DNA from: Candidatus Omnitrophota bacterium
GTDB taxonomy: Bacteria; Omnitrophota; Gorgyraeia; Gygaellales; Profunditerraquicolaceae
NCBI GenBank assembly: GCA_028716965.1
Contig: JAQUOV010000002.1
Location: 66,113-130,112 of the forward strand
Length of the DNA: 64,000 nt
Direction: 5' to 3'
Within the stretch, counting starts at the first letter, position 1. Every line of letters starts with the position of its first letter. Of the stretch, positions 45,001 through 51,000 are shown one piece after another. A program made the position numbers.

Positions 45001-48000
45001 TCATCTATCTACTCTCCTCTTCTTTTTGCGCCTGTTTTTCCTGCAATATCTTCTCGGCTATCTGAGCGGGAACCTGTGTATACTTATCAAATTCCATTGT
45101 TGCATTTGCCCTGCCGCTGGAAAGAGAACGGAAACTGGTGGCATATCCGAACATCTCTGCCAGAGGGGCCTCGGCTGAGACAATCTTTTGATTACCCTTA
45201 GCTTCAATATTCAGGATCTTTCCGCGGTGCGAACAGATATACCCTACGCAACCATTCACATAATCTTCGGGAGTAGAAACCTCCAGCTTCATGCTTGGTT
45301 CAAGGAACACCGGGTTGCCTTTCATAAAGGCTTCTTTAAACCCAAGTATGGCTGCCATCCTAAAGGCAATTTCGGAAGAATCCACTTCATGGAATGAACC
45401 GTCGACTAATTCTACCTGCACATCTACGACCGGATATCCTGCGTAAACGCCTTTCTGCATAGCTTCAATTACCCCTTTTTCAACTGCCGGAATAAACGAA
45501 CGCGGGATTGCCCCCCCTTTAATGCTGTCTATAAACTTGAAGCCTTCCCCCGGATTATTGGGGGATATTTCCAAGACTACGTGGCCATATTGGCCGCGGC
45601 CGCCTGACTGTTTTATATATTTGCTCTCGGCGCTGGCTGGTTTTAAAATAGTCTCCCGGTAAGCAACCTTCGGCTGCCCTACGACTGCTTCCACGCCGAA
45701 CTCCTCCTTTAACCTGTCAACGATAATCTCCAAATGCAATTCCCCCATGCCGGTAAGAATAACCTCTTTTGTTTCTTCATCGGTTTCTACTTTAAAAGTC
45801 GGGTCCTCTTCGGTAAGTTTGGCCAGGCCTTTACCTAACTTGTCCTGATCTGAACGGCTCTTAGGGGCGATGCTTAATGAAACCACCGGGGCAGGAAATT
45901 TTATCGTCTCCAGCACTATAGGATTATCCACATCACAAAGCGTATCTCCGGTTATTGTGCCAGACAAACCCGGAATTGCCACAATATCCCCGGCAAAAGC
46001 ATAATCTATATTTTCGCGCTGGTTAGCATGCATCTGCACAATGCGCCCCACTCTTTCTTTTTTATTCTTAGTAACATTTAGAATATACGTCCCTGTGGCA
46101 AGGACCCCCGAATATACCCGCACATAGACCAGTTTTCCCATGTGTTGATCAGCCTGAACTTTGAAAGCCAGACCGCAGAACGGCTCATTAATATCAGCTT
46201 TGCGCTGCAGCTTCCTCTCCGGATTATCCGGGTCATCGCCTTGGACCGCCGGAAGATCCAGCGGGGAAGGCAGAAAAGCTACGATAGTATCTAAAAGTTT
46301 TTGCACCCCTTTATTTTTAAATGATGCGCCGCAGATAACCGGAACCATTTTATTGGCTATTGTGCATTCCCGGATAGCCCGGTATAGCTCTTCCTGGGTA
46401 ATGGTATCTTCCTGCTCCAGGAATTTCTTCATCAGGTCATCATTTCCGGCAGCTACGCGTTCAACCATAATATGCCGGAATTTTTTAGCCTCCTCTTTTA
46501 ACTCTTCCGGTATATCTGCAACCTCAAACTCTTTGCCCAGGGATTCTTCATTATAGATATAAGCCTTCATCTCGATTAAATCAACTATCCCGCGGAATTT
46601 GTCTTCGCTGCCGATAGGTATCTCCAAAGGGACAGCACAGGCATTCAAATCTTTTTCAATCGCCTTAAATACACTGTAAAAATCCGCGCCCGTGCGGTCC
46701 ATTTTATTAATAAATGCGATCTTGGGAACATGGTACTTGTCGGATTGCCTCCAGACTGTTTCCGATTGCGGCTCTACCCCGCCTACGGCGCAAAAAACCG
46801 CCACTGCCCCGTCAAGTACACGCAGGGACCTTTCCACTTCAACGGTAAAATCAACGTGGCCTGGTGTATCAATAATATTAATGCGGTGCCCTTTCCAAAA
46901 ACAGGTTGTGGCTGCCGAGGTAATGGTAATACCCCGGTCCTGCTCCTGCTTCATCCAATCCATGGTTGCTGAGCCGTCATGCACCTCGCCGATTTTATAG
47001 GAACGGCCGGTATAAAAAAGTATTCTTTCGGTAGTAGTCGTCTTCCCGGCGTCGATATGCGCCATAATCCCAATATTCCTTACCTTCTCCAGAGCAGTCT
47101 GCGGTACGGCTAAAAGATCAGATTTCTCCTTCTCCCGCGGCGATTCCTGGGTTAATGTCTCTTCTGCTGTATTTGTTTCTACGGGATCCTCCTTTTGGGG
47201 GGCCGTTTCTTCCTCCGCATTCACTGCAGTAACAGGCTGTACCTCTTTGCCCTCAACATCCTCCTCGGTAAGGACCTCCATCTCTCTATCCGGCTGCGAT
47301 GGCGCAGGCTCATCCGGCAAAGGCTGTTTGTCAAGAGAATCTTCAAATGCGGATTTTTCCTGTAACCGGTTTTTAAGCTGCAACAGTTCTTCCACCAGCA
47401 TCCTGGATTTTTCTTCCCTTTTCTCCAGTTCATTTTCCAGCTGGGTATATTCTTCGTTAAGTTTGTTAAACTCCTCTTTAGGCACCCATTCGCTGATCTT
47501 TTCTTTACGGTTGAACTCGGTAATAGAAGCTAAATATCCCTTAATATCCTTGAGCTGCTTTTCTATCTGGTGTTTCTGAATCTGAACCTGCTCTTCTTTG
47601 TCTTTAATCTCTTTATTTTCAGCCTCTAAAGATGTTTTTAATTCACGCACCTGGCGCGACAACTCAACATTTCTGGTAAATTCCTCTTGCAGCTCCTTCT
47701 CTTTAGCAATAAACTTATTTTCCAATTCCAGGCTTTCTGCGCTTTTTTTGGCCAGTTCCGCCTCAGCCTTAGCTACCCACTCTTCTCTGCGTTTCAGTTC
47801 ATCGGAGAACTTAGTTTCTTTTTCCTTGGATAGCAAAAACTCGGTTTTTTCCCTATCATACTCAGCCCTGATCTGAATCAGCTGGCCCTCCAATTCGTGC
47901 GACTGTTCTTCTAGTTGGCGTATTTTTTGCTCCTGGTTAGGATCTTTGATAAGTGTAGGCCTGTAACTATCTGTATCCTCTTCCCTGCCCCCTCTAGCTG

Positions 48001-51000
48001 GCCCGGAAGATACGCCTGAAGCAAAGATGCCAAAAATCGCGTAGATAATCATCCCCACCCCTAAACCCGCCAGTATCTGCATTGCCAACATCATTTTAAT
48101 CCACCCCTTGCCAGTTTATCCAGCCGCTCTTTGATTTTAACTTCATAGCCGATATCTGTAGGTTCATAGTAGCGCACTTTGCTGCGCATATATTTCTGTT
48201 TTACAAAATGCCCAGGGTAATCATGAGCGTATTTATACCCGACCCCGTGCCCCAGTTTCTCCGCTGCGCTGTAGTTTGTATCCTTCAAATGGTCCGGTAC
48301 TTCTTGCACCTTGTTTCTTTTAATATCATAGGTAGCTTTTTCGATTGATAAATAGCTCGCGTTTGACTTGGGGGCACAGGAAACATAAATTACCGCCTGA
48401 GCCAGCGGGATGCGGGCTTCGGGCATACCCACAAATTCGGAGATTTGTAAGGCAGCATTGGCCAAAACCAAGGCCATCGGATCGGCATTACCCACATCTT
48501 CGGCTGCCAAAATACAAATCCTGCGCGCGATAAACCGCGGGTCCTCCCCGGCGTAGAGCATCTTGGCCATCCAATAAATAGATGCATCCGGGTCTGAACC
48601 GCGCATGGATTTAATAAATGCCGAAGCAGTATCGTAGTGCCCGTCTTCGTCGCGGTCATAAACTACCGCTTTTTTCTGGATGGATTCCTGGGCTATCTCT
48701 AAATTAAAATTAATATGGCCGTCTTCATCGGCGGCAGTAGTTAAAACCCCCAGCTCTAATGCCGCCAAAGCCCTGCGTGCATCCCCTTCACAAATTTTGG
48801 CTAAGAAATTAAGCGCCTTTTTATCAGCCTTAACCTTAATATTACCCAGCCCCCGCTCTTTGTCTTTTAAAGCATTATTTATTATTTCCAACAGGTCGGA
48901 AGGCTCAAGCGCTTTTAATTCACAGACAATAGAACGAGAAAGTAAGGCTGAGGTAAGCGAGAAATAGGGGTTGTGTACAGTTGCCCCGATTAATATAAGC
49001 CTGCCTTCTTCAAGGTCCGGCAGGAGCACATCCTGTTGCGCCTTATTAAAACGGTGTATCTCGTCGATAAAAACGATGGTTTTCTTCTGGCCTTCCCTGG
49101 ATCTTATTTTGGCAGCGGCAATAACCTTTCTCAATTCTTCGACGTTGGAGGTAGTGGCATTTATAGCCACATAGCTTGCCTGGGTAATCTTGGCGATACA
49201 CCAGGCCAAAGAGGTCTTCCCTGAGCCGGGAGGACCGAAAAGAATAAGCGAACTCAAACGGTCAGCTTCAATAGCGCGGCGCAATAGTTTCCCTTTGCCT
49301 AATATATGGTCCTGACCCAGTAACTCATCAAGGACAGCCGGGCGCATACGCACTGCTAAAGGAAAATTCTTAATATTGTCTTGCGATTTTTCTTCAAAAA
49401 GATCCATAGGGTGTATACTTATACCTTCCACCCAATCTAATCAAAAAGATTGGTCTGCCGCTTTCTGCGGCCTACACCCGGCTTTAAAGGTTAAGCCGGT
49501 GTGCCGCTTTCTGCGGCCTACACCCGGCTTTAAAGGTTAAGCCGGTGTGCCGCTTTCTGCGGCAAATAAAAAAAATCCCCGCAAGAGTGCCGTTGGATAG
49601 ATAGTTTGAACCGATTTGCTTTCAGGTGGGTGCCCTCCCCTTGGCGCCTAAACGCCAAGAGAGCTTGGGCTCCCTGAAAAAAAGTGTTGGTTCAATAATT
49701 ATCAAGGTCTCCAACGTGCACCGCAGGGATATCTAAAAGAGCGTATATTTTCTATAAATAGTATAGCACATATCTAATAATAAAGTCAATCCTGGCTGCG
49801 TTTCTTGTTTCCCTTCTAACGCAATTTTACACCAAAACGCTCTTCTAATAAAGAACAAATTGAATTATGTACCGGGTTAAGCTCCCCTTCGGTAAGCGTG
49901 CGGTCATCTGCGCGGTAAACACAGGAAAGGGTCAAACCTTTGTATCCTTCGGGGATCTGTTTGCCCTGGTAATAATCTACGACTTCTGCCTTGCGCAATA
50001 ACGGCAGGCCTTTAGATTTTATTTCCGCAAGCAGGTCCTTGACGGATATATCATCCTTGACTATAAAACTTATGTCCCTTGTTATCTCCGGATATCTGGG
50101 GATAGCCGAGAATTTCTTGCCTAAGCTTATAAACGAGAATATTCTTCCTAAATCCACCTCGGTTAAGATAACCTGTTTGTTCTTGATACCAAAAGCATCC
50201 AAAGCTTTTTTATCTAAAGCAAGCATAATACCCGCTTCCTGCTGGTTTATAACAATATGGATACCGCTTTCGCCTTGATTCCTGAAATCATAGTCCCTGA
50301 TCCCCAGCTTATTAAACAAACCCTCTAAAACACCTTTTAGGTGCAAGAGAGTAACCTCATCCTTGATTAAACCCTGTCTGGTAAGAAAAGAGTGCGTCCC
50401 GCATAAAGCTATACCTAAAGATAATTCTTCGCGCACGGAATTTTCTCCGCGGGAAAAAACATCGGCTATCTCAAAGATATTCACAAATTCCTGCTTATGG
50501 TCTAAGTTATACGCCAGGCAGCGGACAAGGCTGGGCAAGAGCGTTGGTCGCAAAACCTCCTGCTCTCTGCTTAAGGGATTAATGATCTCAACCGGCCGTG
50601 TATCTGACTTAATCCCGGATTTTAACAGCAGCTCCCGATCGACTAAACTATAGGTGATTACCTCATGCAGGCCTAGGCCAATCAGCGCATTTTTTATATG
50701 AGAGACAACATCCCTTTTACCACAGATGGCTGCATTCGGCTTTATCGCAGGAAGAGTTTGTAAAATCTTATCATAGCCATAAATTCGCGCGATCTCCTCC
50801 ACTACATCTACGGGCAATTTTATATCCTGGCGGAAAACCGGTACTTTTATAGCAAATCCCTTTTTTGCCCTCGCTATTGGATTCAAACCCAGGCCGCTTA
50901 AGATTTTTTTAATCTTAGGCGCAGGTATATCTGCACCTAAGATCCTGTTTACATATGCTGACTCCAAGTTAACCAGCGCTCCTGATGATTCAGGCATACC

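Follow-up and report, generated by a model that had tools for sequence, protein, structure and literature searches.

Elongation factors are seen as proteins that diffuse freely through the cytoplasm. Some bacteria encode two copies of elongation factor G (EF-G), and in spirochaetes the two paralogs, EF-G1 and EF-G2, split translocation and recycling between them. To our knowledge, no second EF-G described so far has a membrane anchor or a coiled coil, and the literature searched contained no account of an EF-G anchored in the membrane or fused to a coiled coil. Other proteins are known in which an enzyme is brought to the membrane by its own N-terminus. RNase Y has an N-terminal transmembrane helix and a coiled coil, followed by KH-HD catalytic domains, while FtsY, the signal recognition particle (SRP) receptor, has a membrane-targeting N-terminus, an acidic A domain and an NG GTPase that acts on membrane ribosomes. 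The subject here is a gene of a Candidatus Omnitrophota bacterium in which a complete EF-G follows, in the same reading frame, a predicted transmembrane helix, a coiled coil and an acidic linker. It lies in a stretch of 64,000 nucleotides (contig JAQUOV010000002.1 of assembly GCA_028716965.1, positions 66,113 to 130,112 of the forward strand), which is called the window below; nucleotide positions are those of the window, and amino acid (aa) numbers those of the fused protein.

The fusion gene (45005-48094) starts with an ATG and encodes 1029 aa; it, its parts and its two immediate neighbours lie on the minus strand. An earlier note on this DNA had described an open reading frame (ORF) of this length with the EF-G N-terminus near residue 335. 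This description agrees with what was found: the match to the EF-G model TIGR00484 begins at aa 333, the R of the RNIGI motif is aa 339, and the region that the note had singled out, 47111-48094, corresponds to aa 1-328, that is, to the extension. The ORF reads through from the extension into EF-G, with no stop codon separating the two parts, as the note had also said. The same unbroken architecture recurs in over 140 clusters of proteins about 1000 aa long, and in at least four genomes or contigs the fused EF-G occurs as a paralog beside a free one. With moderate confidence, we read the product as a membrane-tethered second EF-G, a single polypeptide that would act on membrane-near ribosomes alongside free EF-G.

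Reading frame, start site and domain layout

A search with aa 1-400 returned Omnitrophota proteins that span the extension and the start of EF-G in one chain, together with proteins that consist of the extension only. The N-terminal transmembrane and coiled-coil part is referred to here as the module. In a scan of one genome per GTDB species, in which the two most conserved motifs of the module (SEWVP among them) served as seed, 137 genomes were found, all of them Omnitrophota or mislabelled as such, and 80 of the 137 motif-bearing loci were retrieved and analysed. The module and EF-G share a single ORF of 995-1062 aa in 55 of these 80 loci, three of which are cut by a contig end, and the module stands alone, with 248-412 aa, in the other 25. 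Hence, the relatives do carry the same extension, and the gene fusion specific to the lineage, which the earlier note had offered as one possibility, is what the Omnitrophota species loci contain. Similarly, each of the best 120 homologs of the EF-G part, with identities of 74% or more, is either a protein of about 1000 aa or a version of such a gene that was shortened by NCBI. The gene order pheT-rarA-module (with or without EF-G)-(PPIase)-uvrD-...-rny, where PPIase is a peptidyl-prolyl isomerase gene, is common to most of the 80 loci, with rarA synteny in about 65. A profile search of 1.84 billion representatives with one alignment (A1) said little about where the module occurs, as the profile took in columns of the EF-G G domain and EF-G fragments swamped the list.

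Pairwise ratios of nonsynonymous to synonymous substitution rates (dN/dS) are 0.06-0.16 in the module, 0.11-0.48 in the linker and 0.025-0.08 in EF-G. Since the ratio is below 1 in each of them, all three parts are translated and under purifying selection.

The start ATG (48094-48092) overlaps the stop codon TGA (48093-48091) of the gene directly upstream, rarA/mgsA (48091-49431), forming an ATGA (48091-48094). This upstream gene encodes an AAA+ ATPase, according to the Pfam domains of its orthologs, and it is translationally coupled to the fusion gene. A Shine-Dalgarno (SD)-like sequence, AGGGGTGG (48101-48108), is located 6 nt upstream of the ATG. The same overlap is observed in many relatives, where the first base of the module ATG is also the last base of the final rarA sense codon. 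Among 81 orthologs, the module starts with ATG in 73, and the SD core shows a peak of 0.49 at positions -15 to -11 of the module start, against a background of about 0.05-0.1. No SD peak is present before the EF-G junction. None of the 12 codons before RNIGI is a canonical start in more than 7 of 56 orthologs, and 30 of these 56 have no ATG, GTG or TTG within 40 codons upstream of EF-G. For the window itself, the earlier note had claimed that none of these codons lies in frame within about 50 codons of RNIGI, which is only just right, as the nearest, a GTG at aa 291, is 48 codons away. Judging by this conservation of codon, overlap and SD, the upstream ATG overlapping the rarA stop is the genuine start.

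The public annotation begins elsewhere. The NCBI protein MDD5560843.1 (P0026; 'elongation factor G', 695 aa, from a 237-kb contig of an Omnitrophota metagenome-assembled genome) starts with MEKVRNIGI and is 100% identical to the EF-G part encoded in the window; its M corresponds to the CTG codon of Leu335 (47090-47092, minus strand), which the annotation takes as the start codon. In exact look-ups, the contig index had no entry for either the 1029-aa protein or this 695-aa version. Many fused ORFs have been shortened by NCBI in the same manner to about 693-717 aa, with starts on CTG, ATT-type or GTG codons (P0023, P0026, P0028, P0033, P0076, P0121, P0127, P0179, P0181, P0203 and others). The gene calls of JGI, ENA and Logan instead give a protein of about 1000 aa, and in two cases the same or nearly the same contig yields 993 or 1083 aa in JGI/ENA versus 712 or 693 aa in NCBI. 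As a result of this trimming, a conserved module of 250 aa is left unannotated, and both the fusion and the new family are invisible in public protein records. In addition, marker-gene sets may mix the two EF-G paralogs described below.

The protein begins with a predicted transmembrane helix (aa 2-27; 48014-48091). The hydrophobic N-terminal helix reported in the earlier note has a 19-aa Kyte-Doolittle mean of 2.33 and is modelled as a helix at residues 2-25 by AlphaFold2 (AF2); it is kept in essentially all orthologs, in which the median 19-aa hydropathy is 2.56. The tail that precedes it in orthologs is 0-10 aa long and uncharged (net charge 0), and the flank that follows has a median of 4 K/R in 20 aa (81 orthologs), although in the protein of the window this flank has 3 K/R versus 4 D/E. 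There is thus one hydrophobic helix of at least 19 aa with a more positive C-terminal flank, as expected from its sequence for the signal anchor of a bitopic membrane protein. It is known, as the positive-inside rule, that a positively charged flank stays cytoplasmic. Consequently, the short uncharged N-tail and the basic flank argue for an N-out/C-in topology, in which only the N-terminus would lie outside while both coiled coil and EF-G are cytoplasmic, and the membrane-tethered EF-G facing the cytoplasm that the earlier note had envisaged fits the sequence. A signal peptide was considered and ruled out, given that the hydrophobic stretch is about 24 aa, a positively charged n-region is lacking and EF-G must be cytoplasmic.

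A juxtamembrane segment (aa 28-53; 47936-48013) follows, which is variable in the alignment and predicted to be disordered, with a predicted local distance difference test score (pLDDT) below 50 for residues 25-52. The coiled-coil module proper (aa 54-250; 47345-47935) is modelled by AF2 as two helices of 147 residues (54-200) and 45 residues (206-250), separated by a break. The heptad repeats that had been noticed after the hydrophobic helix are recovered as a hydrophobic 3.5-residue periodicity over aa 54-250, with z = 12-15 against shuffles (15.2 for the heptad score of the module), as compared with z = -0.6 for the linker at aa 251-334. This is not a generic coiled coil, since it has invariant positions and long conserved motifs, QKHQIE among them. 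The most conserved motif of the module, SEWVP, coincides with the helix break (aa 201-205; 47480-47494); S201, W203 and K206 are invariant in alignment A1, and the latter two are also fully or almost fully conserved in a further alignment (A2). At about 0.15 nm per residue, the stalk would be 22-29 nm long.

The module and EF-G are connected by an acidic linker rich in Pro, Glu and Thr (aa 251-334, 84 aa; 47093-47344), predicted to be disordered (pLDDT about 26-34). The acidic linker of the earlier note is borne out by the composition, with 25 D+E versus 7 K+R and 10 prolines, and by the lack of periodicity. Ortholog linkers vary from 50 to 116 aa and are indel-rich, with a median net charge of -12, and they are always in frame and stop-free. 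The contour length of the linker is up to about 30 nm. At the junction, the consensus of the fused proteins, P-x-P-(K/R)-(Y/I)-S-L-(E/D)-K-(T/V)-RNIGI, aligns with the N-terminus of free Omnitrophota EF-Gs, which places the join at the native EF-G N-terminus.

Neither aa 1-262 nor the standalone homologs have a Pfam, NCBIfam or PDB-sequence match above coiled-coil noise. The sub-threshold matches of the module are to SMC models (about 20-25 bits, where the cut-offs exceed 560) and to Bacillus_HBL (17.6 versus 29.1), and the best PDB E-value is 0.33. PF12072, the N-terminal anchor of RNase Y, is not matched even at E-values up to 1; a weak BLAST similarity to the RNase Y N-terminus (E = 0.008) is seen for the N-terminus of one divergent fused protein, P0313. 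As far as these searches go, the N-terminal module is an undescribed family.

The EF-G moiety (aa 335-1029 plus stop; 45005-47092) is complete. It scores 1047.8 bits with the TIGR00484 equivalog, for which the cut-off is 659.4, and aa 333-1021 align with positions 5-690 of the 691 in the profile. The five Pfam domains of EF-G all exceed their cut-offs and occur in order: the G domain with its G' insert (aa 337-610; 46265-47086; PF00009, 218 bits), domain II (aa 638-721; 45932-46183; PF22042 and PF03144), domain III (aa 733-806; 45677-45898; PF14492), domain IV (aa 808-926; 45317-45673; PF03764), with the loop motifs SGGRGQYGH and HEVDSSE, and domain V (aa 930-1015; 45050-45307; PF00679), with the residues MEFxKYxQVP that are diagnostic of the fused type. 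AF2 gives the EF-G fold from residue 335, and the closest solved structures are ordinary EF-Gs, from T. thermophilus and S. aureus (866 bits). In 165 fused-type sequences, the P-loop, the DTPGH of switch II with its catalytic His and the NKMD are 100% conserved, the switch I Thr and the GMGELHLE hinge vary hardly or not at all, and conservation extends to most of the G5 region; the two domain IV loops are conserved at 92-100% per position in this clade. Models for EF-G2 and EF-G-like proteins remain below their cut-offs (NF009377, 506 versus 890; NF058620, 483 versus 1000; NF009892, 176 versus 640). Tetracycline protection proteins, RF3, LepA and BipA were also considered as identities and rejected, as the scores are far below the cut-offs (tet_protect, 394 versus 775; prfC, 224 versus 467). 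By every sequence criterion tested, then, the protein is an EF-G, and the EF-G part is predicted to be catalytically intact.

Fused and free EF-G in Omnitrophota

In a neighbour-joining tree of 291 EF-G sequences (283 from Omnitrophota), the Omnitrophota EF-Gs split into two sister clades. The fused-type clade holds 165 sequences, all fused or shortened by NCBI, and the free-type clade holds 118 sequences, about 698 aa long and beginning at a genuine Met, with one fused exception, P0313. Between the two types, identity is about 68%. Mean identities to outgroup EF-Gs are nearly equal, 55.5% for the fused type and 56.5% for the free type, so the fused type shows no acceleration in rate. Twenty diagnostic columns separate the types, several of them in domains IV-V, and the MEFxKYxQVP motif is present in 98 of 114 fused-type proteins and in none of 120 free-type proteins. 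With TIGR00484, other fused-type proteins score 1051-1060 and free-type proteins 1086-1098.

The C-terminal motif of the free type, MHFEKYxEVP, was turned into a DNA pattern that matches 13 of 13 free loci and none of the fused loci. Scanning a metagenome collection for it gave 68 loci, and three of these metagenome contigs (L126, L138 and L144) carry both genes. The free EF-G has 704 aa and the fused protein 1082 aa in L126; in L138, these are 699 and 1074 aa, and the fused gene starts 143 nt downstream of the free gene; in L144, both genes are cut by the contig end. The free and fused copies of L126 and L138 are about 71% identical, the fused ones branching as sister to the fused-type clade and the free ones inside the free-type clade. 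The closest free EF-G to that of L126 belongs to a complete genome of 1.52 Mb, CP070797.1, which has a 1051-aa fused gene 1.6 kb downstream of its free fusA; the public gene call for this fused gene is only 797 aa.

In these basal lineages, the fused gene is a neighbour of free fusA. The two are adjacent in L138 (2435-7895), whereas genes for a SpoU methylase and a peptidoglycan-binding protein lie between them in CP070797.1 (L165, 10001-16847) and in L126 (6368-13579). Because the genes are neighbours there, it is suggested that the fused copy arose by local duplication. A second fusA is likely also in the crown group with the rarA context, including the genome of the window.

Like the fused gene, the free-type Omnitrophota EF-G genes (L084, L085, L086, L089-L096 and L165) are outside a str operon (rpsL-rpsG-fusA-tuf); their neighbours vary by lineage and include a two-component system, fabD, MTHFR and radical SAM genes, among others. 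The genes flanking free-type loci have no match in the window besides EF-G. In two contigs (L103, 3-1862; L146, 1208-2650), an EF-G with the free-type motif, its N-terminus cut by the contig end, lies directly upstream of a cyclophilin PPIase gene. In L144 (2-1753, minus strand), the module is duplicated within the fused protein, with matches at aa 3-248 and aa 216-396.

The proteins that consist of the module alone (for instance, P0012-P0019) are annotated as 'hypothetical' or 'chromosome segregation ATPase'. They are homologous to aa 1-250 at 45-58% identity and share the transmembrane helix, the motifs and the rarA-PPIase locus with the fusion, from which they differ by the absence of EF-G, their length of 248-412 aa and, in some, a tail rich in E, K and P. 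When the module tree is rooted with the divergent fused P0020 and P0313, standalone forms fall deep within fused lineages, as a main clade of 23, as the pair L023/L027 and as L068 (bootstrap 97/100). This nesting makes the fusion ancestral and implies that the EF-G part was deleted at least three times; on this tree, the standalone forms derive from the fusion and are not its ancestor. In L023 (352-1631) and L027 (10001-11280), the linker and EF-G are cleanly gone and a 248-aa module abuts the PPIase gene, while the nearest relatives, L010-L013, keep the full fusion. Among the matches listed, the genomes with standalone modules have no EF-G that is at least 74% identical to that of the window; they would therefore use an EF-G of another lineage.

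Proposed mechanism and rival explanations

The proposed course of events is as follows. An EF-G gene would have been duplicated within Omnitrophota, and one copy would then have been joined to a pre-existing gene for a membrane coiled-coil protein. Translation would start at the ATG overlapping the rarA stop and yield one polypeptide, whose N-terminal helix would insert into the cytoplasmic membrane and leave the remainder in the cytoplasm. The coiled coil of about 200 residues would form a stalk, probably oligomeric, and the disordered acidic linker of about 84 residues a flexible tether ending at the complete EF-G. Without being released by proteolysis, this copy would most likely work as a normal GTP-dependent translocase and recycling factor, although only within a few tens of nm of the membrane, on ribosomes such as those that synthesise membrane or secreted proteins. 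The genome is expected to encode an ordinary free EF-G as well, which would serve the bulk of the cytoplasm.

Several points weigh against this proposal. The fused EF-G has evolved at the same slow rate as its free counterpart, which would also fit a sole, essential EF-G. No free fusA was found for this genome, of which 64 kb were covered, or for any crown-group genome with the rarA context, and a comparison of accession blocks and whole-genome shotgun prefixes, based on sparse sampling, tied no free-type EF-G to a fused genome. The trees are neighbour-joining trees on biased samples, namely the top hits of two queries. Furthermore, the EF-G parts of two fused proteins, P0313 and the partial P0020, fall with the free-type clade, in which that of P0313 stands next to a free EF-G, and the two proteins share a divergent module with 25-36% identity to that of the window. 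A history of one duplication and one fusion is consequently incomplete; this placement could reflect an independent fusion, gene conversion or a tree artefact. Finally, the AF2 model is that of a monomer (predicted template-modelling score 0.44) and is uninformative on oligomers, and membrane insertion, the uncleaved state and activity on ribosomes are all things that we infer.

Among the rival explanations, an indel from assembly or sequencing that created a false fusion in this contig has a probability close to nil: the same architecture is conserved in independently assembled genomes and in metagenomes from many studies and sources, which excludes the assembly or frameshift error that the earlier note had raised. 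It is also very improbable that two proteins are made, with EF-G starting separately at the non-canonical CTG (47092-47090) and the upstream part being a separate product or not translated into EF-G. Although NCBI annotates an 'elongation factor G' of 693-717 aa from CTG, ATT-type or GTG codons, and standalone modules do occur as genes of their own, the upstream part is without a stop codon in 56 of 56 fused genes despite a fast-evolving and indel-rich linker whose dN/dS is below 1. Moreover, neither a conserved start codon nor an SD peak is found at the junction, the near-cognate codons there simply encode conserved Leu or Ile of the N-terminal strand of EF-G, and the other gene callers (JGI, ENA and Logan) give the protein of about 1000 aa. 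The non-canonical start considered in the earlier note is what the NCBI annotation assumes, and comparison gives it no support, although a minor product may be initiated internally.

Other explanations accept the single polypeptide and concern what it does. The fused protein might be the only EF-G of the genome, the free-type gene having been lost in the crown group with the rarA context; this is unlikely. In its favour, the EF-G part is fully canonical, with 1047.8 bits, invariant motifs and a rate equal to that of the free type, and no free-type EF-G has been tied to any crown-group fused genome. Fused contigs of 1.87, 1.19 and 0.65 Mb, and the 237-kb contig of the window, are likewise absent among the 120 free-type matches listed, but that list is limited to matches with at least about 76% identity to a single query, which makes the absence weak evidence. 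If this explanation were true, all translocation and ribosome recycling would be carried out by a membrane-tied factor on a stalk and tether of about 30-60 nm, which would restrict translation to a shell beneath the membrane in these very small cells. Nevertheless, both genes are present in one complete genome and three contigs, at least three deletions of EF-G within the crown group are hard to explain unless another EF-G was present, and genomes with standalone modules have an EF-G of another lineage. Accordingly, the view implied in the earlier note, that this protein is the translocase of the cell, is probably wrong. A change of task, in which the protein docks or parks ribosomes at the membrane or serves only in the recycling or rescue of stalled membrane-bound ribosomes, is unlikely as well. 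The diagnostic columns in domains IV-V, the TIGR00484 scores of the fused type, about 35-45 bits under those of the free type, and the spirochaete-style division of labour between EF-G paralogs would be compatible with it, but all motifs for GTP hydrolysis and for translocation by domain IV are conserved and nothing in the sequence singles out recycling. Quite improbable, in turn, is a precursor from which EF-G is freed by proteolysis of the linker, either constitutively or from a regulated reserve held at the membrane, such that the active factor is soluble. The linker is long, disordered and exposed, a Pro-x-Pro-(K/R/Q) precedes the EF-G N-terminus in most orthologs and standalone modules retain linker-like tails; however, the locus has no linked protease gene, conservation of the linker is limited to its composition and its last few residues, which are mostly the N-terminal strand of EF-G itself, and a soluble factor is already provided by the free paralog where both genes are seen.

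A second EF-G, uncleaved and tethered at the membrane, therefore stays the reading that we favour. As a gene product, the fusion is well supported by comparison, while the function outlined here is deduced from its sequence. If a natural EF-G were permanently anchored in the membrane, it would represent a new way in which bacteria organise translation in space, and a case of a duplicated core translation factor that specialises through location and not through chemistry. The fusion with its stalk and tether is kept across a large part of the phylum under strong purifying selection, and it may offer a handle on how the small-celled and largely uncultured Omnitrophota couple protein synthesis to the envelope.

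Surroundings of the locus and comparison with known systems

The gene is not in an rpsL-rpsG-fusA context, as had been noted earlier: rarA lies upstream and a cyclophilin-type PPIase gene downstream (44456-45004, minus strand; Pro_isomerase in orthologs). The latter begins on the base right after the EF-G stop codon, and its product has an N-terminal signal or anchor. No second EF-G and no EF-Tu P-loop is encoded within the 64-kb window, and scans for promoters and terminators around the fusion gene gave counts at the level of shuffled sequence. A 6S RNA (Rfam RF00013, 76.9 bits; 49572-49732, minus strand) sits between pheT and rarA, just upstream of the row formed by rarA, the fusion and the PPIase gene; in most relatives, an interval of about 200-450 nt is preserved there. 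Further away, a c-di-GMP-I-GGC riboswitch aptamer (RF03167, 66.6 bits versus a gathering score of 59; 27499-27579, minus strand) lies upstream of a 171-aa ORF (26901-27416), and a cluster of three tRNAs (Val-GAC, Leu-TAA and Cys-GCA) is found at 59364-59759 (minus strand). Positions 1-26000 have a lower G+C content, 34-40% versus 42-48% elsewhere in the window, and contain genes for a carbamoyltransferase whose tail is SxtJ-like, three GDSL-lipase proteins, of which two have TPR repeats as well, a methyltransferase, two B12-binding radical SAM enzymes and a sulfatase. This region looks like a surface-glycan modification island.

When compared with canonical EF-G (FusA; TIGR00484; PDB 1DAR of T. 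thermophilus and 2XEX of S. aureus), the protein of the window has the same five full-length domains, G1-G5 motifs, catalytic His and domain IV loops. It differs in its 334 extra N-terminal residues, in its location outside a str operon and in belonging to a distinct paralog clade. The presence of two EF-G genes per genome is shared with the bacteria that have two EF-Gs (for instance, 4FN5, 'Elongation factor G 1'; 6N0I, 'Elongation factor G 2'; 1WDT, an EF-G homolog of T. thermophilus; and the spirochaetes), and both Omnitrophota copies exceed the cut-off of the EF-G model; the copy of the window, in contrast, is under the EF-G2 cut-offs of NF009377 and NF058620.

The top PDB match is an engineered L9-EF-G chimera (4WPO, 4WQF and others), in which EF-G begins at chain residue 74. 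In this case too, a foreign polypeptide is attached to the N-terminus of EF-G, and since the chimera was solved on the ribosome, such N-terminal attachment is compatible with ribosome binding. The chimera is nevertheless artificial, has a short linker and is tethered to a ribosomal protein instead of the membrane.

Similarities in design are also found beyond EF-G. By analogy, FtsY shares membrane attachment, an acidic flexible region and a translation-related GTPase with the fusion, whereas its GTPase is of the SRP type, it lacks a coiled-coil stalk and it has no homology to the module. RNase Y differs in its attached enzyme and in its N-terminal family, as the module gives no PF12072 match. 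The overall plan is the same, however, in that a single N-terminal anchor and a coiled coil hold an enzyme of the RNA machinery at the membrane, and the RNase Y gene (38935-40491; RNase_Y_N in orthologs) lies 5 kb away from the fusion, in the same conserved gene row.

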